The notes: a model not told the origin generated them from the sequence alone. Positions 975 through 58,802 are shown, counted from the first letter of the stretch. The stretch is DNA of 64,000 nt from Patescibacteria group bacterium (GCA_018897195.1 JAHILH010000004.1:83678-147677), one strand, 5' to 3'. Made by a program: numbers and translations.

Positions 975-2354
975 ATGACGCAAATTAATTTTAAAATTAA
1001 TGGCCTTCATTGTAAAAGCTGCAAAGCTCTAATTGAAAGCGAGGTTAAAGCCACCAATAAAATTGAAAACATTAACGTTGACCACATTAGCGGTGACACT
1101 TCTTTGGATTTTGACGGCAACATTGAAGAGATTTACAAAACCATCGAAGATCTGGGCTATGGCATTGTCAGAGAACCCAGCGCCGCTGATTCAAAAAAAA
1201 AAGATGTTGTAGCCGGTGTCATAACTAAAGAACAGAATCAATTTCTAGTCCCTGGTATTTCCCTGGCTTTGTTTATACTAGCTTATTTTCTGATTCAAAA
1301 ATTTGATCTATTCAGGATCATGTCACAACTAAACGAAGCAAGTATTAGCTATGGTGTTATTTTTGCCATCGGTCTCTTAGCAAGCTTTCATTGCATTGGC
1401 ATGTGTGGCGGACTTATTATAACTTATACAGCCTCAGGCAAACTCGATGAAAATCAAGAAACTAAAGACTCAAAAATAAAAAATCTACTGCCGCATATTC
1501 AATATAATCTTGGGCGCTTAATCTCCTACACCGTCATCGGTGGCGTCTTGGGCGGATTTGGCTCTTTCTTCGGAGTCAATCCAGTCTTTGCCGGCATTAT
1601 GACAATTTTTGTCGCAATTTTCATGCTCTTAATGGGAATTTCACTATACTCTGAACACAGATTTTTAAACAAGATTAAATTAAGCACACCAGCATTTATT
1701 GCTAAGTTCATTTTTAGCAATAAACACAATCAAAAACCAAAAGGACCATTTATCATTGGCATTCTTACTGGCTTTATGCCTTGCGGACCATTACAGGCGA
1801 TGCAATTATTCGCCCTTGCCTCTGGCAGCGTTTTTAATGGCGCGATGGCGATGTTTCTTTATTCCCTTGGCACTATTCCGCTCATGCTAGGCTTTGGCAC
1901 TCTAATTAGCTCCATTAGCCATATTAAAATTAGACAACTCATGAGATTTTCCGGCGTATTGGTTGTGCTCTTGGGTTTATTGATGGTCAATCGCGGTTTG
2001 GTAAATTTTGGTTATGGATTTAACCCATCGATGCAAAAAAATACGCCGGTGCAAACATCAAACACCGACAAAAATTCCAAAGAAGTTCAAGTAGTTGAAA
2101 TGGCTGTCACTTACAACGGTTATTCACCCAATGTTTTACATATCAAAAAGGATATACCAGTTAAATGGATTATTAAGGATAAAGGTATTACTGGTTGCAC
2201 CAGTGCTATCAAATTATATTTACCAGAAGGCACAATTAATAAAAACTTAGTTCAAAAAAGTGATACCATTATCGAATTTATACCGACGCGGGCCGGCGAA
2301 TTAAAATTCAGCTGCTGGATGAGTATGGTTTGGGGTAAGTTTATAGTTGAATAA
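975..2354 (+). CDS. Copper-handling fusion protein: N-terminal HMA domain (GLHCKSC), DsbD_2/UreH-like polytopic membrane domain (HCIGMCGG, MPCGP), C-terminal cupredoxin-like domain (FSCWMSMVWG)
   Basis: An MxCxxC heavy-metal-associated motif lies at residues 11-16. It is followed by about 6 TM segments carrying paired Cys motifs. The C-terminal ~100 aa carry a C..M.M motif typical of Cupredoxin_1. Confidence 0.55.
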   Translation: MTQINFKINGLHCKSCKALIESEVKATNKIENINVDHISGDTSLDFDGNIEEIYKTIEDLGYGIVREPSAADSKKKDVVAGVITKEQNQFLVPGISLALFILAYFLIQKFDLFRIMSQLNEASISYGVIFAIGLLASFHCIGMCGGLIITYTASGKLDENQETKDSKIKNLLPHIQYNLGRLISYTVIGGVLGGFGSFFGVNPVFAGIMTIFVAIFMLLMGISLYSEHRFLNKIKLSTPAFIAKFIFSNKHNQKPKGPFIIGILTGFMPCGPLQAMQLFALASGSVFNGAMAMFLYSLGTIPLMLGFGTLISSISHIKIRQLMRFSGVLVVLLGLLMVNRGLVNFGYGFNPSMQKNTPVQTSNTDKNSKEVQVVEMAVTYNGYSPNVLHIKKDIPVKWIIKDKGITGCTSAIKLYLPEGTINKNLVQKSDTIIEFIPTRAGELKFSCWMSMVWGKFIVE

Positions 2355-2379
2355 TTAAACTCCCGCCGTCGCTAATGCT

Positions 2380-4599
2380 ATGGCGTGGCAAAGTAAAAAT
2401 ATGAAAAAAATAATTATTAAAATCACCGGCATGACCTGTGCAAGCTGTGCACTCAATAATGAAAAAACTTTAGGGAGCACCAAGGGCATTATCAGCGCGA
2501 ATGTTAATTTTGCCAACAAGAAAGCAACAATTATATATGACGATAATATTCTAAACCAAACTCAGGTAAAAAAAATCATCATTAATAATGGCTACAATGT
2601 TGAGGAAGAAATAAAAAATAATGAAGATCATGGGCAACACATCCATGAAAATGGCGAAATTATTAAAGTACGCCGCACTTTTATCGGTGCCAGCATTTTC
2701 AGCCTTCCGTTATTACTTGAAATGTTTTATAAATGGCGACTAGGCATCATGTTCCTTCATCTCGACCTGGTGATGTATTTTCATTTTGTATTAGCAACTG
2801 TTGTTGTTTTTTACTACGGCTGGCGCTTTCATAAGATGGCCTTCAAACAAGCTTCTCATTTCCAAGCTAACATGGACACACTTGTCTCCATGGGCACCTT
2901 GTCGGCTTACTTTTATAGCTTCTGGTTACTAATTCAGGTCATTTTTTTCAACATTGAAAAGATGGGCTACTTTGAAACTGCAGCCATTATTATCACCCTA
3001 ATCTTACTCGGTAAATACTTCGAAGCCCGCGCTGCCGGTCAAGCAGGTCAAGCAATGAAAAAACTCATGGAACTAGGAGTTAAAAAAGCCCGTCTACTTA
3101 TCAATGGCGAAGAACGAGAAATTGATATTGAAAATATTAAGATTAATGACATTGTCATAGTTCGACCAAGTGAAAAAATCCCGCTTGATGGTATCATCGA
3201 AGATGGCGAGTCCAGTATTGACGAATCCATGTTGACTGGCGAATCTTTACCGTTAGAAAAAAAACCAGGTGACACTGTTTATGGTGCGACAATTAATCAG
3301 ACTGGCGTCTTGAGAATTAAAGTTACCCAAATTGGCGAAGGCACAATACTGGCCAAGATTATCAAAACTGTCGAAGAAGCTCAAGGGTCAAAAGCACCGA
3401 TTCAAAAATTAGCCGACAAAATATCTGGCATTTTTGCACCAGTCGTAATCATCATCGCCCTATTAACTTTTATCACCTTATATTTCAGCTCCGGTAATTT
3501 TGCCACCTCCCTAATCAATGCTATCACTGTTCTAGTTATTGCCTGTCCTTGCGCTCTTGGTTTGGCAACACCAACAGCCATTATGGCCGGTACTGGCCGT
3601 GGGGCTAAGAATGGAATACTATTTAAAAATAGTGAGAGCTTTGAAAGAGCCAAAAATATTACCATGATTGTCTTTGACAAAACCGGTACTCTCACCGAAG
3701 GCGCACCGCAGGTAAAAAAAATTATTACTAATCCAGAATTCAAATTCGAAGAGGCTCATATCATAAAAATCGGCGCCTCCGTTGCCCAAAATTCCAACCA
3801 TCCTCTTTCGATGGCTGTCAGCCAATACGCCGAACAAAAGAACACGCAACTTGCCGAATTAGAAAACTTCCAGGAGTTAAGCGGTCGTGGCGTTAGTGGC
3901 ACATGTAAAGCTCACAAAACTTCTCTAACACTTGGTAATAAAAAATTACTAACAGAAAACAATATCGACACTACGTGGGCTAATGAACTTCTAAGGGCCG
4001 AAAATCTGGAATCAGGTACAAGACTATTTGTCACACATGGTCAAAACTTAATTGGCGCCTTTATTATCGCTGATAAAATTCGAGCTGAGTCTGCTCAAGT
4101 TATCGCCGATCTTAAATCTATGGGCCTGAAGATTACAATGCTATCGGGCGACAATATTCAAACCGCTCAAGAAGTGGCCCGGGAATTGCAAATTGATAAT
4201 GTAATCGCCGAAGTCTTGCCAAACGAAAAATCACAAAAAATTAAAGATCTACAGGCTAGTGGCGAAAAAATTATTTTCGTTGGTGACGGTATCAATGACG
4301 CTCCTAGTCTCGTGCAAGCCAACCTCGGCATTGCCATGGGCAACGCGACTGATATTGCCAAAGAAGCCGGGCAAATAATTTTAATGCAAAATAATTTGAA
4401 TAAAGTTGTCGAAGCAATCAAATTGTCCAAAACAACTTTCCGCACTATCAAACAAAATATTTTCTGGGCCTTCTTCTATAACACCATTGCCATTCCATTA
4501 GCCATCCTTGGCGTTCTAAATCCAATCATCGCCTCGGCGGCCATGGGCTTTAGTTCCGTTTCGGTGGTCTTGAATAGTTTGCGGATATATAAGAAGTAA
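2380..4599 (+). CDS. copA: Copper-translocating P1B-type ATPase
   Basis: An HMA motif GMTCASCA is present. TM6 carries CPC (ACPCALG), followed by [13 protein letters not shown] and TGES motifs. The true start may be the internal Met at 2401. Confidence 0.95.
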
Positions 4600-4612
4600 G
4601 AGTATCGTATAA

Positions 4613-4703
4613 CTCCCTCTCCTGGATAGGAGAGGGCAGGGTGAGGTAGATTTTCGGTGACGGCTCCCCCACCCCGACCCTCTCCCGGCGGGGCGAGGGA
4701 GAA
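4613..4703. repeat. GC-rich palindromic intergenic repeat, copy A (about 90 bp)
   Basis: The sequence is CTCCCTCTCCTGGATAGGAGAGGGCAGGGTGAGGTAGA...CTCCCGGCGGGGCGAGGGAGAA. It is about 93% identical to copy B at 14719-14811. Confidence 0.8.
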
Positions 4704-9789: not shown

Positions 9790-10467
9790 CTATTTCTTCC
9801 TCATCCAAAAAACCCAAAACTTCAACGGATAGTCTCCTTTTTGCATTTCTTCTTTTTTCAAAATTTCAAAATCCTTCTGAAACAACTTTTCAACTTCCCA
9901 ATCGTAAAAAATGTGATTATAGTGGCCATTTTTAAGAGACCAGTTTTTTACCTTGATTCCGCGGGTAAATTTCTTGATATTACGGTCGGAATTAATACTG
10001 AAACAAATTAAAAAGAAATAACCGCCTGGTTTTAAAACAAAATTCAAATTTCGCAAATATTCCCGCCATTGATATTTGCGAATGTGGTGAAGACAACCAG
10101 AGTCGAGCACTACTTCAAATTCTTCTTTAATATAAGGCAAATTTAAGACGTCGCCAACTTGAAAATCAACTGAAACTTTGGATATTTCAGCATTTTTTTT
10201 GGCTAATTTTACTGCCTCTTCTGAAAAATCAATTCCGCTGCTTTTTAAACCTATTTGCGCAAAAGGAATCGCTTGACGCCCATTGCCACAGCCAAAATCC
10301 AAGAATTTACCATTAATTTTCTCTTTCTTGATAAATTCGACAAATTTAAAAATCACCGGATACGGTGTTTGTGAGGAAAAGTGCCAATTATCACCCGAAT
10401 AACCCCCTTTTAAATTTAGCCAAAATTTATCGTAAAATATTTTCTCTTTTTTAATAACTTTATCCAT
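9790..10467 (-). CDS. Class I SAM-dependent methyltransferase
   Basis: Motif I LDFGCGNGRQ is present on a Rossmann-like methyltransferase fold. Confidence 0.7.
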   Translation of the reverse strand: MDKVIKKEKIFYDKFWLNLKGGYSGDNWHFSSQTPYPVIFKFVEFIKKEKINGKFLDFGCGNGRQAIPFAQIGLKSSGIDFSEEAVKLAKKNAEISKVSVDFQVGDVLNLPYIKEEFEVVLDSGCLHHIRKYQWREYLRNLNFVLKPGGYFFLICFSINSDRNIKKFTRGIKVKNWSLKNGHYNHIFYDWEVEKLFQKDFEILKKEEMQKGDYPLKFWVFWMRKK

Positions 10468-14700: not shown

Positions 14701-14718
14701 TACAAAGATTATTACATA

Positions 14719-14811
14719 GTTCCCTCTCCTGGATAGGAGAGGGGCAGGGTGAGGTAGATATTCGGTGACGGCTCCCTCACTCCGACCTTCTCCCGGCGGG
14801 GCGAGGGAGAA
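14719..14811. repeat. GC-rich palindromic intergenic repeat, copy B
   Basis: It is near-identical to copy A. It lies between the tRNA terminator and the 3' end of polA. Confidence 0.8.
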
Positions 14812-14825
14812 ATCTTGAATACAAT

Positions 14826-17621
14826 TTATATCTTCTCCATCTCCCCCCAACTCTGCCCTACTTTCGCATCCACCACAATCGGCACAGTCAAAGTAATCGC
14901 ATTTTCCATAATCGCTTTGATCTGAGGCACATATTTTACGACCAAGTCTTCGCGCATCTCAAAGATTAATTCGTCGTGTACTTGCAATAAAACTCTTGCA
15001 TCGCTGTCAGTTATCTTTGCCAACACCTCAATCATCGCTTTTTTAATTAAATCCGCCGCCGTGCCTTGAATTGGAGTATTGACCGCCATCCGCTCGGCCG
15101 CTTTGCGAATTTGCATGTTCGATGAGTTAATGTCAGCCAAGAAACGACGACGACCGAACATGGTTTCAACAAAACCCTCCTCTTTTGCCTTAGCAATAGT
15201 GTTATCAATAAAATTTTTCACACCGGGGAATTTTTTGAAATATTCTTCAATAAATAAGCGAGCTTTTTCAAAAGAAATATCCGTCGCCTGCGCAAGTCCG
15301 TGCGGCCCTTGGCCATAGAGAATACCAAAATTGATTGCCTTGGCTTCACGACGCATTGTACTCGTTACTTCCGACAAATCCACTTCATTAATCTTGGCCG
15401 CCGTTAAAGAATGAATGTCAACATTATTTTTAAAAGATTCTAGCATTGTCTCATCACCAGACATATGTGCTGCAACCCTTAACTCAATTTGCGAATAATC
15501 AAAAGCAACTAACATATAACCAGCCTTAGCAACAAATGCCTTGCGAATCTCACGACCCATCTCGGTACGCACAGGAATATTTTGTAAATTTGGCTCAGTC
15601 GATGACAAACGACCCGTCGCAGCTACAGCCTGGTTGTAGCTCGTGTGGATTCTTTTTGTTTTCGGATTAATTAATTGCGGTAGGGCTTCGATATAAGTAC
15701 TAATCAACTTCGCCAACTCGCGATATTCCTGAATATATTTAATAATCTCATGACGATCTTTCATTTTTTCCAATTCATCAAAAGCCGTGGAAAAACCAGT
15801 TTTCGTCTTTGTAATTCCCTCGGCTGAAATCTGCAACTTATCAAACAAAACTTCTTTCAACTGTTTGGTCGAGTTAATATTAAAATCACCGCCCGCCAAA
15901 GTCCAAATTTCTTTCTTAATTTTATCAATTTTCTTGGTTAATTCTTTATTTAATTTTTGTAAAAAACCACCATCCAAAGAAATTCCGTTCTCCTCCATTT
16001 CTACTAAAACAGAGATCAACGGCATTTCCATTTCATTAAATAAAGTTTCTAATTTTTGTTCTTGCAACTGCTTACGCAAAACCTCAACCAAACGAAAGGT
16101 AAAATCCGCATCTTCGCACGCATATAAGGATAATTTTTCCGCCTCTACGTTAGCGTATTCAATTTTATCTTTACCCTTACCAAGCAAATCTTCTTTATTG
16201 ATTTTTACAAAACCCAACTCCGCAAACACAACAGCGTCTAAATTATGTTGTCGATTATCTGGATTCAAAAGATAAGAAGCAATCATGGTGTCAAAGTTAA
16301 TTCCCTCGACATTGACGCCCTGATTCTTTAAAACCCGCACATCATACTTCATATTGTGTCCATATTTTTGGATACTTACGTCTTCTAAAATTGGTTTTAA
16401 TTGCTTTAACCAATTATTATCAACTTGCGCCTCTTCTTTAATATCAGACATGCTACCATAATTAAACAAGTTAGTTTCCTGTTCTCCCTGCTTCTTTTTT
16501 GCGGCTTGTAATTTCAAATAATAAGCTTCACCTGCTTTCCAAGAAAAACTCACTCCTAAAATCTCACATGTAATCGGATCCAATGAAGTCGTTTCAGTGT
16601 CCACCGCAAATGCCTTTTGTTTTTTCAATTCAGTAAAGAATTTTGCAAACTTTTTTTCATCATCCACTAAAACATATTTAAACTCCGTTCGATTACGTTC
16701 AAATTTATCAATTACTTCCTGAGCACTTTCTGCCTTGGTTTGATTAGCTCCGGATAAATCCGCCACGCGGGGCAATAATGATTTAAAACCTAGGTCGCTA
16801 AACACGTCCACTAAACCATCTTTATCATAAACACCAAACTTAGCTGCCTCCAAATTAAAATCCATCGGCACATCAAGTTTTATAGTTGCCAATTCTTTAG
16901 ACATATATGCATCTTCCTTGTGAGTCTTCAATAATTCCGCAATCCGCGGTTTCACTTTGTCTAGATTTTTATACAACTCGTCCAAATTTCCAAATTCCTT
17001 CAATAACTCCGTCGCTGTTTTTTCACCGATCCCCTTCACACCCGGAATATTATCCGAGGTATCACCACGCAGGGCCTTGTAATCAATTAACTGCGCCACC
17101 TTCAATCCATATTTCTCTTCCACTAATTTTTCATCATACAAAACACTATCCAAAATCCCTCGACTCATCGTGTAAACTTTTGTATCCGCCCGCACCAATT
17201 GAAAAGCATCCGCATCACCTGTCACAATAATCTTATCAACTTCCGGCTCGTGCCTCGTAATCGTCCCAATCAAATCATCCGCCTCAAAACCATCCATCTC
17301 AAAAATCGGAATCCCAAACGCCCGCACCACTTTCTTCACCATCGGAATCTGCGCATACAGCTCATCCGGCGCCTTCTCGCGATGCGCCTTATACTCCGTA
17401 TATTGAATATGCCGAAAAGTTGGCGCCTTCCGATCCAAAGTCACCACCACATACTCCGGCTTAAACTCTTTAATTGCCTTCAACAACACAGTCGTAAATC
17501 CATACACCGCATTTGTCATTTCCCCCGCGCTATTTTTCATAGTCGGCGGTAAAGCGTGAAAACTACGATGAATCAAAGCGTTCCCATCAATGATAATAAT
17601 CTTTTCTTTTTTTATAATCAT
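14826..17621 (-). CDS. polA: DNA polymerase I (5'-3' exonuclease + 3'-5' exonuclease + polymerase domains)
   Basis: The protein is 931 aa with the canonical domain order. Motif A DYSQIELR and motif B RRxAKxxNFGxxYG are present. Confidence 0.95.
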   Translation of the reverse strand: MIIKKEKIIIIDGNALIHRSFHALPPTMKNSAGEMTNAVYGFTTVLLKAIKEFKPEYVVVTLDRKAPTFRHIQYTEYKAHREKAPDELYAQIPMVKKVVRAFGIPIFEMDGFEADDLIGTITRHEPEVDKIIVTGDADAFQLVRADTKVYTMSRGILDSVLYDEKLVEEKYGLKVAQLIDYKALRGDTSDNIPGVKGIGEKTATELLKEFGNLDELYKNLDKVKPRIAELLKTHKEDAYMSKELATIKLDVPMDFNLEAAKFGVYDKDGLVDVFSDLGFKSLLPRVADLSGANQTKAESAQEVIDKFERNRTEFKYVLVDDEKKFAKFFTELKKQKAFAVDTETTSLDPITCEILGVSFSWKAGEAYYLKLQAAKKKQGEQETNLFNYGSMSDIKEEAQVDNNWLKQLKPILEDVSIQKYGHNMKYDVRVLKNQGVNVEGINFDTMIASYLLNPDNRQHNLDAVVFAELGFVKINKEDLLGKGKDKIEYANVEAEKLSLYACEDADFTFRLVEVLRKQLQEQKLETLFNEMEMPLISVLVEMEENGISLDGGFLQKLNKELTKKIDKIKKEIWTLAGGDFNINSTKQLKEVLFDKLQISAEGITKTKTGFSTAFDELEKMKDRHEIIKYIQEYRELAKLISTYIEALPQLINPKTKRIHTSYNQAVAATGRLSSTEPNLQNIPVRTEMGREIRKAFVAKAGYMLVAFDYSQIELRVAAHMSGDETMLESFKNNVDIHSLTAAKINEVDLSEVTSTMRREAKAINFGILYGQGPHGLAQATDISFEKARLFIEEYFKKFPGVKNFIDNTIAKAKEEGFVETMFGRRRFLADINSSNMQIRKAAERMAVNTPIQGTAADLIKKAMIEVLAKITDSDARVLLQVHDELIFEMREDLVVKYVPQIKAIMENAITLTVPIVVDAKVGQSWGEMEKI

Positions 17622-18655
17622 ATTTCAGTAATTATTTACAATACTTCCATTATACCACAGAAAACAAAAAAAAATAGCTCAAAATAAAAAAAATAATAAC
17701 TTATTCTCTTAAAGATAATCAATATTTTGATTATTTTATTAGAGAGCGAAATTTTTACCTCTCCGAGAACCAACTATTTATTCTATAGCTAGACTGATTG
17801 CCCGCTTACCAAAATATATTTTACAAGCCAGGTAACTGCTTACTTTATTATTACTGAGATATTAAAGAAATTCCTCATCCTTGCCTTTGTCCTAAATTGA
17901 AGCAAGGTGTTCCCGTTTATTTTTCGTCGGCCTGGCGGGAGTCCGACTATATCGAAGAGATCAAACTCTTTGATATAAAAACCGCTTTAGATTGACAAAT
18001 CTACTCATCACAGCACCTCAAATGAACGAGGTTTATTACTTTACTACATTATTAAGCTGCGTTTTTTATAAATTAACCAATATTTTTTATTGCCGTTCTC
18101 ATCTCCTAAATCTCACAAAGATTTAACTACAAAAAAACTTCGCTTAAAATTGTAGACGATATTTCCATAAGATTAATGAATTATTTTTTATAGATCCATT
18201 TATCATTATTTCAATATCCCAATCTTTGCGAAGTTTTAGGAGATGAGTATTTTCATATACCGATGTTAACGTTCAAGGCACGACCCGCCGAGGCGGATCA
18301 TAATGAATTAAGTTTCATTATGACAAGCATGAAATTTAATTTACTTTGTTTGCTGCCGACTCGTGAATTAAACGAAGTCAGAAGCGCTTTGGTCTTAAGC
18401 AATCTTTCAGCTTAATAAATCAGTATAGCAAACATTTTGAAACTTGTCAATAGTCTTTGACGGAAATTATCATTATTAATTATTTATTGCTAACTTTAAA
18501 TATAATTATAATCAATATCTTGTTATTTATATAAAACAAAAGTAGGCTAATAATGTAATATAAATAATATACATTTATTTTCGCATTATAGACAATACAT
18601 GATGCTTTCTTAACACAATGAGATTATGCATTATGATTTAAGAAAATAAGTGCTG

Positions 18656-18745
18656 CCTCCCTCTCCTTTGTAGGAGAGGGTTAGCGTAATCCTCGTCCGA
18701 TTAATTATAAAGGGGACGGGGTGAGGTAGAACGGGCGAGGGAGAA
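18656..18745. repeat. GC-rich palindromic repeat, diverged copy C
   Basis: It shares the 5' hairpin CCTCCCTCTCCT..AGGAGAGGG and the 3' GGTGAGGTAGA...GGCGAGGGAGAA with copies A and B. The middle differs. Confidence 0.6.
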
Positions 18746-19347
18746 TACAATGGCAAACTTCTCGATATATTTATTCAAAATCATAAATTGCATATAAAAC
18801 TAAAAAAGACCAATTTTTTAGATTGATCTTTTTTATTACTTATATTTTTATCTTCCCAGACATCGCAAGATTAATACAATAAAACTTCGCTTAAAATTGC
18901 ATCAATCAATACGAAGTTTTGGGAGATAATATAATGTACAGGCTTGAAAAAGCCATTGGGACAAATCTAAATGTATTTAGCACAACGTTTTTTGGAATAA
19001 ATTCTTTACTCGTTGTAAATAACTTTGAAGAAAAGATAATCATTCCATATTTATAACCACATCAGATAAACCACTTTAGTCGCAACAACGAAATAAAATA
19101 GTTCATGTAGAATATTAATTCTAGGTAGATGTAACAAGTGTGGAAAATTTTAGATTTGTTTCAATGTGCTTTTTAAGTTAATTTGTCAGTTTAGCAAACA
19201 TTTTTAAAAATGTCAATAATAAACAACAATTTTACAATATTAATTAATTAATAGCTATTATTAAATAAAATAAAACAATAATATATGTCACATGCATACA
19301 ACTTTAATAAAATTATCTGCCAAAATAACTATATCCGTCAATAAGTA

Positions 19348-19376
19348 TTGACAAATATTTTTAAGTATGCTAGACT
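19348..19376 (+). promoter_or_regulatory. Candidate promoter TTGACA-N17-TAGACT for the 19526 small ORF
   Basis: A perfect -35 hexamer and a 17 nt spacer are followed by a weak -10. Confidence 0.3.
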
Positions 19377-19525
19377 AATATATTAACTCAGAACATTCAA
19401 AACTAAAAAGGAAATTACCCCCTGTAAAGCCTTCAACAAATTATGGTGACGGCCTTACAGAGGAAGAATTATAAAAAATATCTGCGCAAAGCAGAATCCC
19501 CTCTCTAAATCATAAAGATAAATAT

Positions 19526-19684
19526 ATGATGAGATCAATTTCCGGAACCTTGTCGTTGATGCTATCAATGGCAGTCCTACGAACAACACTACCTGAAGCC
19601 GCAGATCTTCTAGGTCAAATCCTAGTAACGTCATTAACCATGGTTAACGGCTTACTACACCACGCCGGATCATTGCAGATATAG
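19526..19684 (+). CDS. Small ORF (52 aa, MMRSISGTLSLMLSMAVLRTTLPEAADLLGQILVTSLTMVNGLLHHAGSLQI), unusually GC-rich; alternatively a structured ncRNA
   Basis: GC content is about 48% in a ~30% background. A strong terminator follows immediately. The ORF is below the track's size threshold. Confidence 0.3.
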   Translation: MMRSISGTLSLMLSMAVLRTTLPEAADLLGQILVTSLTMVNGLLHHAGSLQI

Positions 19685-19692
19685 AAACCCAA

Positions 19693-19720
19693 AAGGGATT
19701 CGAAGAATCCCTTCTTTTTC
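19693..19720 (+). terminator. Intrinsic terminator (AAGGGATTC-GAA-GAATCCCTT + T-run)
   Basis: A perfect 9 bp stem and a 3 nt loop are followed by CTTTTTCC. Confidence 0.6.
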
Positions 19721-20186
19721 CGGAAGAGGAATTACAAAGCGATTTAGCGAGCAACATCACTCATGGAATTACTTTGTCATTTCTGACAAACAGCACATTA
19801 AAAACACAAAGACTACTGTTTGTATCGCAATCAACTAATTTTGTCTCTTCTTACTAAGAGAGATAATATATTTTTTTCACTACAATAATGGAGGTGTTAT
19901 ATGGGTGGATGAAATTGCATAAGCAAAATCGTCTGTGGTTCTAGTAACTGGACTAGAACCATAAAACCTACGTGACATTTTAAAATCCATAAGGAGAAAA
20001 ATGAACGGTTAATCAGCTTTCAAATCATCGGTAAGGGAAAAATAACTAATTTATTTTCTACTTTTCTGGAGAAAAAAATGAACGGCTAAATTCCAACTAG
20101 GCATCTCTAATATTGATGAAGTTGATTGTTTTGACACAAAATAGAAAAAATCTATAAGCTGGTATAATCACTACCACTTAAAACAA

Positions 20187-20225
20187 AACCCCCTTCGAAT
20201 AAATTCGAAGGGGGGTCTTTTTTTA
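20187..20225. terminator. Bidirectional terminator (CCCCCTTCGAAT/ATTCGAAGGGGG) at the 3' end of the TrmB-like gene
   Basis: A 12 bp perfect GC-rich stem has a T-run on the + strand and an A-run upstream. Confidence 0.7.
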
Positions 20226-20229
20226 TAAA

Positions 20230-20976
20230 CTATTTTTTGGATTTTAAATACTTTAGAGCTAAATCATATAAAATTTTAAAAGTATTCGCTATTTCCTTAT
20301 TTTCAATAATTACACCGCTCGACGGACCACTTTGGGATATAATCCTGATTTTATTTCCAAAAATGGCAATATCACTATTAATTTTATAATCCTTTGACGA
20401 TATTCGTACCACATCAGCGTCTGTTTTTAATCTTTTTTTATCATCATTGGTTATAATTTCAGCATTTATTTTTTTATTCTGTCTTTTTTTCCTCATTTCC
20501 AAAACTTCTTCTTCGGTAAACATTTTCAACAAAAGATCATAAGAATATATCATTCTAAGTTTTTCATCACCATTCTTAAAATCAAATATCTCTTCTGCGA
20601 TTGCCCTCATGCCTTCCTTGCCTTCAAAATACCTAACAGTTGGGCCCTCTTTGTCTCTAGATTTTAATGCTTTTAAATTCGGTAATATCCTATCTAAATA
20701 CTCTTGCTTTTTTTGTATCTCCATTGCCTGCTCTCGAAACAATAAATTTAATTTCTCCGGTGATTCCGCATAAAAATATTGCTTTTTATTCTCATAGGCG
20801 CTACTCATTAACCCCTTTTGAATTAAAGATTCAATAACTACATAAGTAGTAGCTCTATTCACTTTTGCCTTTTCAGAAATCTTCTGCACGGTGCTTTGTC
20901 CCAGCTCTAAAGTAGCTAAATAAACCTTAGCCTCTTTCTCGGCTAAACCGAGATTTTTCAATTCTTTATAATCCAT
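20230..20976 (-). CDS. TrmB-family (winged-HTH) transcriptional regulator
   Basis: The N-terminal HTH LGLAEKEAKVYLATLELGQSTVQKISEKAKVNRATTY is typical of TrmB. Confidence 0.55.
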   Translation of the reverse strand: MDYKELKNLGLAEKEAKVYLATLELGQSTVQKISEKAKVNRATTYVVIESLIQKGLMSSAYENKKQYFYAESPEKLNLLFREQAMEIQKKQEYLDRILPNLKALKSRDKEGPTVRYFEGKEGMRAIAEEIFDFKNGDEKLRMIYSYDLLLKMFTEEEVLEMRKKRQNKKINAEIITNDDKKRLKTDADVVRISSKDYKINSDIAIFGNKIRIISQSGPSSGVIIENKEIANTFKILYDLALKYLKSKK

Positions 20977-27496: not shown

Positions 27497-27630
27497 ACCT
27501 TACAACCTTATCACCTTTTTTGATATTTTTCAAGATAAAAAAACTGGAAACTGAAAATGTTTATCTATTTTGCGACTTTTCCCAACACTACCATTGATTT
27601 TACATTTTTATAATTAATTTTACCCAATAA

Positions 27631-27672
27631 TAGCAAAAAAACAGAGCTAGTTAAATTATCTTAACTAGCTCC
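27631..27672 (-). terminator. Intrinsic terminator (GAGCTAGTTAA/TTAACTAGCTC) 23 nt downstream of the 27695 small ORF
   Basis: An 11 bp stem is followed by a minus-strand U-tract. Confidence 0.55.
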
Positions 27673-27694
27673 AAAAATAAATAAAAAATTACTT

Positions 27695-27841
27695 TTATTT
27701 TTCTTTTTTTAAAAGAAGATTTTTACAACTAAAGTCTTTGGGGAAAGGATTTAGAAAAAAAAATCCTTTACACGTTTTAAATTGACAATATCGAAGACAT
27801 TGCTCCTTGTCTTTGCAATTCATTTTTGTGCCGCGTTGCAT
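27695..27841 (-). CDS. Small Cys-rich ORF (47 aa, MQRGTKMNCKDKEQCLRYCQFKTCKGFFFLNPFPKDFSCKNLLLKKEK)
   Basis: A strong SD AAGGAGGG lies 8 nt upstream of the ATG. The ORF has five Cys residues and a terminator directly downstream. It is below the ORF-track threshold. Confidence 0.35.
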   Translation of the reverse strand: MQRGTKMNCKDKEQCLRYCQFKTCKGFFFLNPFPKDFSCKNLLLKKEK

Positions 27842-27858
27842 TATTTCACCCTCCTTTT

Positions 27859-28056
27859 TTAATCTATTCCTTTGGAAAAGGAATAATTACCTTTTTCTAG
27901 GTCCGCGGGTAACGACAACACCTTTGCATTAGAGCCACAGATTGGGCACCCTGGTTGATAAGCCAAAAAATTATTGCCACATTTTTGACATTGATGCGTG
28001 TGTCTTAGTTCGCGCTCAAAGTTCGTAATACCATCATCTTCGGGATTTTCACACAT
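27859..28056 (-). CDS. Small zinc-ribbon protein (CxxC...CxxC)
   Basis: CQKCGN and CPICGS pairs are present. Confidence 0.45.
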   Translation of the reverse strand: MCENPEDDGITNFERELRHTHQCQKCGNNFLAYQPGCPICGSNAKVLSLPADLEKGNYSFSKGID

Positions 28057-28134
28057 GTATTATCTCCTTTGCAATTATTTATATAAAGAACAACATTTAT
28101 TTTACCTTTTCAATAAATATTAAAACGAGATCAT

Positions 28135-32797: not shown

Positions 32798-32963
32798 AAA
32801 ATGTTTAAAAATTATTATAATACCACAATTGTAACACATAAATTTAGATAAAAATAGATATATCTTTGACACAAAAAAGTCTTGCAAAAAAGCACGCACT
32901 ATGCTAATATCTAAAATCAGCAATGGCTGATAAAAATAAAAATCAAAGGAGGAGAATAATAAT

Positions 32964-35516: not shown

Positions 35517-35806
35517 ATTTGATTATTTTCAAAGATCACAACCAATAAATATAGCACAAGTACCGCTATTTGTCAATAATATTTTCCAAATTCCTTGTTA
35601 TTATATATTGTCCTTAATATTAGCCATAATATCACAATATATGGGCTTTTGCATTAATCCTAAAATTTTGATATTATCAATATATATTGCTCTGGACAAA
35701 ATCACAAAAACGTGCTAATGTTAGAAGACCGTAAACTTCTATCAAAGTAATGAATTTCTGGTTTTAAAAATTATAACAAACTTCTTTGACTTAATACATA
35801 AATAAT

Positions 35807-46573: not shown

Positions 46574-46671
46574 GTTTTTATTATACTATACTTCCGAGAA
46601 AAGCCAAATATACTATTTGACAGAAAAATAAAATATTTTATAATAAGGATATAACTTTTAATCTAAATTTT

Positions 46672-46920
46672 ATGGAAATAGAAATTGAAAAAATACTTTC
46701 TTTAACTAAAAAGAAAATGAACGAGTCGGGCGCATATTCGCGCGAGGCCTTTGAACAGTTTGTTGAGGAAGCGATTGATTATTATCTACAAAAAGGCGAA
46801 TTATCCGATGATGATAATTTAGAATTCATTGAAGATCAAGTCATGGAAATGTATGACGTGGTTAAAGAAACAATTAGTGACGATGGCGGTATTAATGAAG
46901 AAACTTTTTATAATTTTTAA
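46672..46920 (+). CDS. Small acidic hypothetical protein (82 aa)
   Basis: Only the ORF is available. Confidence 0.35.
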   Translation: MEIEIEKILSLTKKKMNESGAYSREAFEQFVEEAIDYYLQKGELSDDDNLEFIEDQVMEMYDVVKETISDDGGINEETFYNF

Positions 46921-46976
46921 CCCTACCCAATCCAAAGCCATAGCTTCCTGTTATGGCGCGCACTAAACACTCTCAT

Positions 46977-47013
46977 AAAAAAAAGAAAGCCGATTTACGG
47001 CTTTCTTTTTTTA
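46977..47013. terminator. Bidirectional intrinsic terminator (GAAAGCCG/CGGCTTTC)
   Basis: The stem-loop is flanked by A-run and T-run between convergent genes. Confidence 0.65.
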
Positions 47014-47028
47014 TTCTAAATTTTCTAA

Positions 47029-52528: not shown

Positions 52529-52557
52529 TTGACAATATTTTACAAATGTGCTATACT
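52529..52557 (+). promoter_or_regulatory. Sigma70 promoter TTGACA-N17-TGcTATACT (extended -10) upstream of the flotillin gene
   Basis: A perfect -35 hexamer, a 17 nt spacer and a TG-extended -10 are present. They lie about 155 nt upstream of the ATG. Confidence 0.55.
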
Positions 52558-57144: not shown

Positions 57145-57414
57145 TTACCTCTTTTTTGTAAATGTTTTTAATAAATACGCCTCTCTTTCATTAATTGGTT
57201 CTCCTTCTGTGTGAGTGTTTATAGATTTTACCCCCGAAGCTCTTTTGACGCACATGTCTGGTAATGATTCCTCTCCTTTTAATAAGAAATTGCACGTAAT
57301 CCCACATTTTGAACATTCATATTGCGGGTATTCTATACCATCTTCTTTCTCAAAACCAGCGAGGTACCACTCTGGTACAAACATCAAAGATTTTTCACCT
57401 ACCTTTTTATTCAT
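57145..57414 (-). CDS. Small Cys-rich protein, paralog 1 (Y-C-x2-C-G-x-T-C ... LPD-x-C)
   Basis: The motif is shared with the 57441..57623 ORF. The stop abuts the start of the lytic transglycosylase. Confidence 0.45.
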   Translation of the reverse strand: MNKKVGEKSLMFVPEWYLAGFEKEDGIEYPQYECSKCGITCNFLLKGEESLPDMCVKRASGVKSINTHTEGEPINEREAYLLKTFTKKR

Positions 57415-57440
57415 AAGTACAATATCCCTCCTTAAATTTT

Positions 57441-57623
57441 TTACGGGTTATTATTCAAACTGAGATCTATAATTTGACAAGTATCCGGCAATTCACCGTC
57501 ATCCTTGATTGTTTCGTCACATGTACTACCACATTGAATACAAACACAATATTTATACATCACTCCTTCTTTTTTTATGTAATCTATTGGATGCCAAACA
57601 GGAAACCATATCACCAAAGACAT
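57441..57623 (-). CDS. Small Cys-rich protein, paralog 2
   Basis: YCVCIQCGSTC...ELPDTC aligns with YECSKCGITC...SLPDMC of paralog 1. Confidence 0.45.
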   Translation of the reverse strand: MSLVIWFPVWHPIDYIKKEGVMYKYCVCIQCGSTCDETIKDDGELPDTCQIIDLSLNNNP

Positions 57624-57783
57624 TTCTATCTCCCTTTTGTTGAGTATTTAATTTTCAATGAACAGTTTATTATATAAAAAAGACATTGTTTCAGTCTTTA
57701 TTTACCTTTTGTATAGCAAGTATTAACCAATTTGTCAATGCTTTTGTGCAAATTCAAAATTTTAAAAATAAATACTCTCACCG

Positions 57784-57812
57784 TTGACTTTTTTCTTTTT
57801 TTAGCTTAAAAT
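57784..57812 (+). promoter_or_regulatory. Candidate promoter TTGACT-N17-TAAAAT for proB
   Basis: The hexamers and spacing lie about 70 nt upstream of the ATG. Confidence 0.4.
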
Positions 57813-57881
57813 GAGCGGATGAATATTATATAATATATCAGAAACAAATTAATCGCACATTAAAATACAAGGAGAATATCG

Positions 57882-58718: not shown

Positions 58719-58802
58719 TGCCTAGAGCGGGAGTCGAACCCGCACGAGATTGCTCTCAAGAGATTTTAAGTCTCTCGTGTATACCAATTTCACCATCTAG
58801 GC
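58719..58802 (-). tRNA. tRNA-Leu (anticodon TAA), type II, CCA not encoded
   Basis: Reverse complement: acceptor GCCTAGA/TCTAGGC, anticodon stem AGAGA/TCTCT, loop CT-TAA-AA, long variable arm, T-arm GGTTCGACTCC. Confidence 0.85.

Follow-up and report, generated by a model that had tools for sequence, protein, structure and literature searches.

A Predicted Island of Small Genes and Structured RNAs in the Gap between polA and a TrmB-Like Gene of a Patescibacteria Genome

Introduction

The bar minigenes of phage lambda are start-stop mini-open reading frames (mini-ORFs) in which a ribosome-binding site precedes an AUG, no more than two sense codons follow it, and a stop codon ends the frame. 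Small peptides are also encoded by dual-function small RNAs (sRNAs) such as SgrS/SgrT, RNAIII/hld and SR1/SR1P, while the type I toxin-antitoxin arrangement tisB/istR-1 has a divergent promoter for its antitoxin RNA. The genomes of Patescibacteria are tiny and contain very little non-coding DNA; to our knowledge, their regulatory RNAs and small proteins are almost uncharted. Here, a 2608-nt gap between polA and a TrmB-like gene (positions 17622-20229) is described in a 64,000-nt stretch of DNA from a Patescibacteria group bacterium (GCA_018897195.1, JAHILH010000004.1:83678-147677), referred to below as the window. The window is the reverse complement of contig JAHIQA010000006.1 in the metagenome-assembled genome GCA_018902835.1, which has the same organism label.

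The gap had been singled out from the sequence of this DNA as a repeat-rich region that could hold structured non-coding RNAs, a decayed mobile or prophage remnant, or a graveyard of miniature inverted-repeat transposable elements (MITEs); this is called the original prediction here. With a probability of roughly 0.7, the gap is a compact island of small genes that is invisible to ordinary open reading frame (ORF) calling, and not a decayed remnant. Which elements it holds is well supported by comparison with related loci (given L numbers below), and what they do is what we infer from their sequences and arrangement.

The Gap and Its Setting

As predicted, the gap contains no ORF of 60 aa or more in any frame. 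It is the largest interval between ORFs of at least 100 aa in the window, the next measuring 737 nt and the median 91 nt. At 30.8% GC, it is richer in AT than the window as a whole (36.8% GC). All of the repeats, palindromes and the stem listed in the original prediction were located at or close to where they had been placed. An alternative genetic code for the gap was rejected: with TGA or TAG read as sense, long frames do not open, the longest (96-126 codons) being not above expectation. Both flanking genes lie on the minus strand:

14826-17621, minus strand: polA, 931 aa, left flank of the gap
20230-20976, minus strand: TrmB-family regulator gene (Pfam PF01978, E = 7e-15), right flank of the gap

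Beyond the TrmB-like gene, on the right side of the gap, are CofD, MscL and others. The TrmB-like protein has 582 homologues, labelled mostly as Patescibacteria.

Conserved Blocks among Diverged Spacers

A search with the TrmB-like protein identified L165, a contig of 3991 nt that encodes a 95% identical homologue and has the same TrmB-gap-polA order, with a gap of approximately 2.2 kb and no called genes in it. The alignment of the window with L165 is a mosaic of blocks that are 82-90% identical and spacers that are 41-61% identical, the third codon positions of TrmB, at 65%, serving as the reference. This contrast indicates selection on discrete elements rather than uniform decay. The identities to L165 are as follows:

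17871-17950, block B of U0: 90% (adjoining spacer 41%)
U1 transcript: 88%
Promoter P1: 85%
Promoter P2: 79%
Promoter P3: 87%
52-aa coding sequence: 90%
U4 core: 87%
19723-19805, conserved block: 80% (next spacer 46%)

The gap is about 400 nt longer in the window because of a duplication of about 750 nt (U1/U2) and the insertion of a GC-rich repeat, both described below. Three assemblies of the window organism (L002-L004) are identical and added no information to the comparison. A polA scan of the genome collection was uninformative, the nearest relatives there being only 58% identical and without synteny. Other scans with polA identified relatives at 78-86% identity, namely L085, L086 and L103.

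At least three of the conserved blocks are predicted to be structured, as the original prediction had proposed. Compared with shuffled sequence they fold much more stably, with z-scores of -4.2, -4.7 and -7.0. Their consensus folds, from two or three sequences, contain compensatory and wobble changes and no broken pairs, and each structured block lies behind a strong promoter or before a terminator.

Promoters and Terminators

The consensus TTGACA-N14-TGNTANANT occurs at six sites in the 64 kb, against 0.1 expected by chance. Three of these six strong promoters, of the form TTGACA-N14-TGnTAnAnT, are inside the gap, and a fourth precedes the TrmB-like gene:

18422-18450, minus strand: P1, TTGACA-N14-TGCTATACT, kept in L165 and in L166 (9441-9485)
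19188-19216, minus strand: P2, TTGACA-N14-TGCTAAACT, whose spacer is the palindrome ACATTTTTAAAAATGT
19348-19376, plus strand: P3, TTGACA-N14-TGCTAGACT, divergent from P2
21007-21035: promoter of the TrmB-like gene, with the same strong consensus as P1-P3

The other two exact matches to the consensus are at 35548-35576 (minus strand) and 52529-52557 (plus strand). A segment of about 35 bp had been reported twice, at 18421 and 19187; it is in fact 48 nt long (18405-18452 and 19171-19218, 79% identical), has a third, inverted copy at 19324-19386, and corresponds to this sigma-70-type promoter. The palindrome reported at 19199 is likewise real, spanning 19198-19213, and is the spacer of P2.

Terminator-like hairpins are also over-represented, six being found against 1.3 expected. 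They occur where the units should end: at 19693-19713, 20189-20214 and 18801-18835, and at the AAAACTTCGC/GCGAAGTTTT stems described below. Two are predicted intrinsic terminators of the plus-strand units:

19693-19713, plus strand: intrinsic terminator after the 52-aa gene, kept in L165, with an equivalent in L175
20189-20214, both strands: intrinsic terminator common to U4 (plus strand) and the TrmB-like gene (minus strand), with compensatory changes in L165

A Conserved 52-aa Protein Gene with a Structured Leader

Downstream of P3 are the following features:

19384-19525, plus strand: structured 5′ leader of the 52-aa mRNA, 140 nt, with a hairpin at 19418-19463
19526-19684, plus strand: 52-aa protein gene with coding-type substitutions and homologues, of an unannotated family
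19723-19805, plus strand: conserved block with the hairpin TTGTCA-TTTC-TGACAA

In a six-frame, codon-aware comparison of the window with L165, 19526-19684 had the top score and was the only coding-like segment in the gap. The 16 differences are distributed over the codon positions as [5,0,11]; nine codons are changed synonymously and six conservatively, and the length is kept. A HMMER search of 1.84 billion representatives identified six homologues (P0124-P0129) of 52-73 aa and 44-57% identity; in the longer ones, the annotated start apparently lies ahead of the conserved Met. A word-indexed search returned only the protein itself, labelled a hypothetical protein in GenBank, and no relative was found in Pfam, NCBIfam or PDB; one homologue has a weak, below-threshold match to SpoIIIAC (E = 0.04). 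Judged by its substitutions and homologues, the 52-aa ORF is a real conserved protein gene of a family without a name. The original statement that the gap holds no ORF of 60 aa or more is true but passed over this gene, which falls below the cut-off. The palindrome that it placed at 19636, TTAACCATGGTTAA (within 19623-19657), is present but lies inside the 52-aa coding sequence and is not kept in L165.

The AlphaFold model of the protein has two helices, residues 2-21 and 23-50, with a break at an invariant Pro23 and a predicted local distance difference test score of 83. The protein is largely hydrophobic and probably membrane-associated. It resembles the small bacterial membrane proteins of fewer than 60 aa that are missed by annotation in its 52 residues, its two mostly hydrophobic helices, its own promoter and terminator and its presence in several genomes, and differs from them in having no named family, a long structured leader and no Shine-Dalgarno sequence. 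In L175, a member of the family is convergent to the TrmB orthologue and is preceded by a P3-equivalent promoter. The leader hairpin at 19418-19463 is kept in the window, in L165 and in the more distant L175, with one compensatory and several wobble changes, and the predicted fold pairs the start codon within AUCAUA/UAUGAU. The block at 19723-19805, which lies between the terminator of this gene and U4, has no convincing promoter.

The homologues in L176 and L177 are single genes in other contexts. This bears on the idea that the 52-aa protein forms a type I toxin-antitoxin pair with the divergent transcript U2 (or U1), for which a small, two-helical, largely hydrophobic protein, a long folded leader with a paired start codon and no Shine-Dalgarno sequence, and the promoter of a divergent RNA approximately 130 nt away, as in tisB/istR-1, would all be suitable. 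Such a pair is very unlikely here, however: BLAST and repeat searches detected no extended complementarity of U1 or U2 to the mRNA beyond the promoters, a duplex search, a method poorly suited to the question, gave nothing above shuffles, the body of U2 is not conserved in L165, and the protein is under purifying selection like an ordinary gene.

Two Paralogous Minus-Strand Units and a Block Upstream of polA

On the other side of P3, the minus strand carries two related units and a further conserved block:

18125-18416, minus strand: U1, candidate small RNA of about 290 nt, from P1 to the module terminator
18098-18247, minus strand: hairpin module 1, a 150-nt imperfect inverted repeat with arms CTCATCTCCTAAAACTTCGCAAAGATT and AAATCTTTGTGAGATTTAGGAGATGAG
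18797-19182, minus strand: U2, diverged duplicate of the U1-type unit, comprising hairpin module 2 (18850-18927) and, at 18801-18835, an AT-rich terminator hairpin
17700-17985, minus strand (tentative): U0, conserved structured block upstream of polA

U1, read from 18416 to 18125, has a folding z-score of -4.2. Its consensus structure with L165 has 79 pairs, none broken and two compensatory, and several G-U pairs fit the minus strand only. A predicted promoter and U-run terminator thus bracket a conserved (88% to L165), non-coding sequence, the arrangement of an sRNA gene. The inner stem of module 1, AAAACTTCGC/GCGAAGTTTT, followed by T7 on the minus strand, is the predicted 3′ end and terminator of U1. 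The hairpin module was said to be present twice, which is correct, and both copies (18098-18247 and 18850-18927) are larger than had been described; their repeated pieces are 18128-18152 with 18220-18244 and 18875-18899 with 18903-18927. The arrangement AAAACTTCG-N22-CGAAGTTTT at 18881-18920 has zero matches expected by chance. L165 and L166 share this module architecture; in the L166 module (9826-9990), the two arms are perfectly complementary over 23 nt. In L166, whose TrmB is 71% identical, a P1-type promoter and module occupy the same place relative to the TrmB/U4 unit, and this U1-type unit is followed by small ORFs that are absent from the window, so that a leader role for U1 may also be considered.

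U2 aligns with U1 at a repeat spacing of 747-766 nt. Its promoter, P2, is a consensus match like P1, and the terminator hairpins carry U-runs. The body of U2 is about 80 nt in L165 and about 310 nt here, the promoter and terminator being kept. A 40-aa ORF (MYRLEKAIG...) is present at 18934-19056 on the plus strand, 7 nt after a GGGAGAT ribosome-binding site that is also the end of hairpin module 2; this segment is absent from L165. Opposite U1, and overlapping it, is ORF50 (18263-18415, plus strand; P0122), which is a hypothetical protein in one public assembly. It was rejected as a gene: no homologue was found, and its changes relative to L165 are of the non-coding type, [2,4,4] by codon position with radical replacements. 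ORF50 is probably a false call.

In resembling known bacterial sRNA genes, which have a sigma-70 promoter and an intrinsic terminator and occur in clusters, the units of the gap have consensus promoters (none found for U4 in the window), and U1, U2, the mRNA of the 52-aa ORF and U4 each end at a terminator-like hairpin. The likeness extends to sRNA gene islands, as the predicted transcripts of 130-400 nt are conserved and structured, are separated by diverged spacers and include paralogues side by side. The units differ from such genes in that they belong to no Rfam family and that no Hfq- or ProQ-type seed or target can be named for them, and also in the unusually long inverted repeat that ends U1 and U2, with AAAACTTCGC conserved across genera.

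U0 contains four hairpins. The one at 17712-17745 resembles a terminator when read on the minus strand, and the others are at 17875-17905, 17918-17950 and 17946-17975. Its two-sequence consensus fold reaches -59.2 kcal/mol on the minus strand, with 10 pairs changed on both sides and none broken, and -48.4 kcal/mol on the plus strand; no copy of U0 was found beyond L165. It ends in its terminator-like hairpin approximately 90 nt before polA, a riboswitch-like layout that would suit a long untranslated region (UTR), with U0 and U1 forming a polA leader with an attenuator. However, polA has its own conserved extended -10 element, TGGTATAAT (approximately 17650-17658), downstream of this hairpin, and in L086 polA directly follows an ORF without such a leader. 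The remaining evidence on this explanation, which extends to U4, is given with that element.

U4, a Structured RNA Convergent to the TrmB-Like Gene

The last element of the gap is a predicted RNA that carries three mini-ORFs:

19888-20100 (approximate), plus strand: U4 structured RNA, with a three-way-junction domain (19890-19981) and three mini-ORFs
19901-19912, plus strand: mini-ORF 1, MGG, in the unit 19890-19912
20001-20012, plus strand: mini-ORF 2, MNG, in the GGAG-A5-ATGAACGGYTAA unit 19993-20012
20078-20089, plus strand: mini-ORF 3, MNG, in the GGAG-A5-ATGAACGGYTAA unit 20068-20089

The folding z-score of U4 is -7.0 for 19870-20225 and -6.5 for the 92-nt domain. A 10 bp stem had been noted at 19935-19962; it is real, is in fact 11 bp (19935-19945/19952-19962), and covaries at four positions across the window, L165 and L170, the last of which (TrmB 89%) provides a third U4 sequence of the window type. 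When the DNA downstream of each fetched TrmB orthologue was read, a U4-type RNA with its motifs in the same order, convergent to the orthologue and sharing a terminator with it, was present in 9 of 10 loci (the window, L165, L170, L175, L166, L169, L171, L173/L174 and L178), down to a TrmB identity of 57% in L178, which belongs to a metagenome-assembled genome labelled Falkowbacteria. U4 is not clearly present in L180 (TrmB 45%, Kerfeldbacteria), where the core motifs are absent. Downstream of the TrmB gene, L180 (3326-3762) contains a consensus promoter together with a frame of five codons (MGMGG) that a Shine-Dalgarno sequence precedes; a second TrmB-family gene follows at 3796-4632, and the U4 model scores 18.4 bits there (E = 0.14). 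In L178, a nucleotidyltransferase/HEPN pair, a toxin-antitoxin-type module, is located at 3728-4452 on the far side of U4.

In hairpin P3 of U4, 63 of 64 outer pairs are canonical over eight sequences, and all eight positions show at least two pair types. Among the six distant members, in a model-based alignment, 85% of cells are paired and seven pairs are changed on both sides; the covariation score is 0.349. Shuffles give 0.230, with a score this high in 1 of 500, and sliding the partners yields no more than 0.173. Below the covarying hairpin, the distant members have an internal loop, CC-GAA-(A)GGY / RCC(Y)-ANUA-GG, which is replaced by Watson-Crick pairs in the window lineage. This loop is similar to the loop E, or sarcin-ricin, motif, three of the six reading AGUA/GAA, but the bulged G that is normally invariant in loop E varies in U4 (G, A, C, U), and the window lineage has no loop.

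The window-type and distant RNAs are regarded as one family because of their identical genomic position and orientation and two composite motifs, GGAGG-N3-9-ATGRRNGGNTRA and GGAG-N4-12-RTGAAYGGNTRR. In approximately 2.1 Mb of fetched DNA these motifs occur only at U4 loci, and they occur once in the window, with none expected by chance. A covariance model of distant U4 matched L170 at 1244-1377 (E = 0.02). An alignment of eight U4 sequences with MAFFT and RNAalifold was too poor to give a joint structure.

The explanation of the conserved blocks as long UTRs of the flanking genes would make U4 an antisense or 3′ element of the TrmB-like mRNA. U4 does have its terminator in common with the TrmB-like gene, and in L166 it directly follows an unrelated 71-aa hydrophobic ORF, which has no homology to the 52-aa family, and would be the 3′ part of that small-protein mRNA. 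The G-U pairs nevertheless place U4 on the strand opposite to TrmB, and in L169, L174 and L178 a consensus promoter of its own lies 80-120 nt upstream. Taken with the polA promoter and the arrangement in L086, these observations make the UTR explanation unlikely.

Mini-ORFs within U4

The original prediction reported two M-N-G mini-ORFs at the end of the gap. Both are present, and they prove to be part of an RNA family tied to the TrmB-like gene and accompanied by a third, mini-ORF 1, that had been overlooked. In all, eight RNAs contain 20 such units, two or three per U4, each with the layout of a minigene: a Shine-Dalgarno sequence, 4-9 nt, AUG or GUG, 1-4 sense codons and a stop. In the first unit, the GGAGG is one strand of helix P1; six RNAs encode MGG here, one encodes MNG and another M-D. 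As the ribosome-binding site of this mini-ORF is a strand of that helix, ribosome access and domain folding would compete. Later units are located in a predicted unpaired A-rich stretch, where MNG occurs in nine copies that differ within the frame only as AUG/GUG, AAC/AAU and GGU/GGC/GGA. The stop is TAA, TAG or TGA in eight of the nine; in L173 it is replaced by CGA and the frame continues two codons on to TAA (MNGRY). In distant U4 RNAs, the ribosome-binding site and 2-5 codons are kept and the peptide differs (MD, ME, MGC, MMHT), with M-D-stop and M-E-stop both found in L178. This pattern, drawn from some 20 short and mutually dependent units, suggests that translatability, rather than the peptide or a fixed RNA sequence, is under selection.

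Each unit is similar to a lambda bar minigene in its Shine-Dalgarno sequence, start, 1-4 sense codons and stop. In contrast to bar, the U4 frames are inside a conserved, covarying RNA, are chromosomal, and are tied to TrmB and kept across lineages. U4 also resembles the dual-function sRNAs as a structured RNA with a conserved translatable frame, but its frames comprise just 2-5 codons, and the peptide they encode is not kept at a distance; it is the act of translation that appears to be selected.

Alternatively, the mini-ORFs may be untranslated, with GGAG and AUGAACGG acting as sites for a protein (a CsrA-type sponge), the 3′ end of 16S rRNA or another RNA, and the stops being incidental. The pairing of the first GGAGG in helix P1, the loss of the peptide in distant members and the lack of an obvious function for three-codon products are compatible with this. 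All 20 units, however, have AUG or GUG 4-9 nt after the Shine-Dalgarno sequence, the in-frame stops are kept while UAA, UAG and UGA are swapped, the variable positions of M-N-G are exactly the silent ones, and the A-rich stretch that holds the second unit is predicted to be unpaired, which would favor initiation. Untranslated mini-ORFs are considered a possible but less favored explanation. It is tentatively suggested, with a similar degree of doubt, that U4 could be the founder of a new class of Patescibacteria RNA, in which a folded domain is accompanied by two or three translated frames, each of 2-3 codons and with a strong ribosome-binding site, and the function lies in ribosome initiation and termination and not in a product. 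Such an RNA might act as a sensor of translation capacity, hold back ribosomes or tRNA, or gate the convergent transcription that enters the TrmB-like gene.

A Repeat Insertion and the Question of a Remnant

One segment of the gap belongs to a dispersed repeat family:

18622-18772: window-specific insertion with a diverged copy of the GC-rich repeat (18642-18745), absent at this site in L165

The diverged copy had been predicted at 18656. The repeat is approximately 105 nt long with inverted ends CTCCCTCTCC ... GGCGAGGGAGAA and strong internal hairpins; other copies are at 4598-4703 and 14705-14811, and fragments were found in L103 (2336-2371) and L175 (4712-4747). In the assemblies L002 and L004 of the window organism, one copy coincides exactly with an assembly break. 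The repeat has the appearance of a MITE or a repetitive extragenic palindromic (REP)-type element: it is GC-rich with inverted ends, several copies are found in this genome and in related ones, and an orthologous site may carry it or lack it. However, only about 150 nt of the 2.6 kb come from this element, and the AAAACTTCG modules, which have MITE-like arms, are found at this locus only. The notion of a MITE graveyard is therefore mostly not supported, as only 18642-18745 comes from a dispersed family and the other repeats are local. The strain-specific additions consist of one MITE-like repeat insertion and one local duplication, and nothing more.

If lost genes, a prophage or an insertion sequence had left a decaying remnant here, with the repeats and hairpins as functionless leftovers, this would account for an AT-rich gap with a local duplication and a repeat insertion. 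The interval between CofD and polA also varies among close relatives: in L086 (polA 83%) it holds two ordinary ORFs of 190 and 246 aa (1749-3036) and in L103 (polA 78%) a 425-aa ORF (947-2224) is upstream of polA, both loci lacking the TrmB-like gene and the gap. In addition, the small ORFs that follow the U1-type unit in L166 are missing here, so that the units of the window could be orphaned leaders. A remnant of this kind is nonetheless quite unlikely, and the original suggestion of a decayed mobile element or prophage is mostly not borne out. A six-frame Pfam scan of the gap found no domain, BLASTN against phages and plasmids returned no match, and no integrase or transposase is present in the gap. 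Decay would also not be expected to leave blocks of 82-90% identity beside spacers of 41-61%, compensatory base-pair changes, or three consensus promoters in the gap where 0.1 are expected in the whole window.

Known RNA Families and Other Identities

Rfam 15 at gathering thresholds gave no match in the gap, including to the models for RNase P, tmRNA, the signal recognition particle (SRP) RNA, 6S RNA, riboswitches and T-box, nor to those for OLE, GOLLD, ROOL and raiA. The failure to recognize RNase P, tmRNA, SRP and 6S signatures by eye is thus matched by the covariance models. At E up to 10, only terminator look-alikes were recovered in the gap. In the whole window, Rfam identified a tRNA at 58719-58802 and otherwise nothing, and on seven related loci it found tRNAs only, with nothing credible in permissive scans of L166 and L171; no member of U4 matched a family. 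ARAGORN detected no tRNA or tmRNA in the region.

Likeness to T-box, 5S rRNA, SRP Alu and hammerhead RNAs (GGGUGG, AGUAGG, CUGA...GAAA) was considered and rejected, as the defining motifs and Rfam models do not fit. A replication origin was also rejected: the gap has one DnaA-box near-match, there are fewer than by chance across the window, and the cumulative skew keeps falling. Searches of the literature on minigene RNAs and Patescibacteria small RNAs turned up no description of these elements.

Proposed Organization and Its Weak Points

In the proposed small-gene island, P3 would drive an mRNA with a 140-nt structured leader, the two-helix protein of 52 aa and its own terminator. U4, of approximately 200 nt, would follow downstream on the same strand and end at the bidirectional terminator shared with the convergent TrmB-like gene, with one frame of 2-3 codons in its folded domain and one or two more in its unpaired A-rich tail. 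P2 and P1, divergent from P3, would drive the paralogous minus-strand transcripts U2 and U1, whose ends are the long conserved hairpin with a terminator, and U0 would form a further conserved structured block just upstream of the polA promoter. U1, U2 and U0 may be small regulatory RNAs or leaders. U4 may engage ribosomes, its tiny frames being translated or at least initiated on, and either the state of U4 or convergent read-through into the TrmB-like gene could in this way be coupled to translation.

Several points weigh against this organization. Every promoter and terminator is a consensus match, none of the promoters found in the window belongs to U4, and the 52-aa gene has no Shine-Dalgarno sequence. 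L165 is the only relative that covers the whole gap, so that U0, U1 and U2 rest on two sequences and a partial third. The island is dispensable and the interval upstream of polA is a variable locus, as judged from the ordinary ORFs that the closer polA relative L086 carries there. The window-type U4 RNAs (window, L165 and L170) and the distant ones have no statistical link and somewhat different folds: an nhmmer profile of the six distant members misses the window type, and the covariance model places U4 at the right coordinates in the window (19887-20014) with 15.6 bits and E = 0.48, a score within noise and no better than that of an unrelated ribosome-binding site at 32919. Finally, conservation of a motif in the RNA sequence, and not translation, could underlie the mini-ORF pattern.

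Other Low-Coding Intervals

The next largest intervals of the window without an ORF of at least 100 aa are 57145-57881, 27497-28134 and 46574-47028 (737, 638 and 455 nt), and they may hold further small genes of this kind. In L166 (8748-13750) and L171 (1652-4077), a stretch of 2.4-5 kb lies beyond the TrmB-like gene and U4, in which the called ORFs are all tiny (64-119 aa) and lack Pfam domains, and after which nrdR-nrdD are found; one ORF of 97 aa has a weak STIV_B116-like match (E = 5e-4). These low-coding stretches may contain more small genes or RNAs.

Conclusions

A conspicuous empty interval in a Patescibacteria genome can, on this evidence, hold four or five conserved small genes. A cut-off of 60 aa hides real genes, and one annotated hypothetical protein, ORF50, is probably no gene. 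The analysis provides two testable objects, an unnamed family of 52-aa proteins and the U4 RNA family beside one regulator gene. If the U4 frames are translated, the minigenes of phage lambda would have a natural counterpart that is chromosomal and conserved, and the frames would offer a handle on translation-linked regulation in organisms that have not yet been grown alone.

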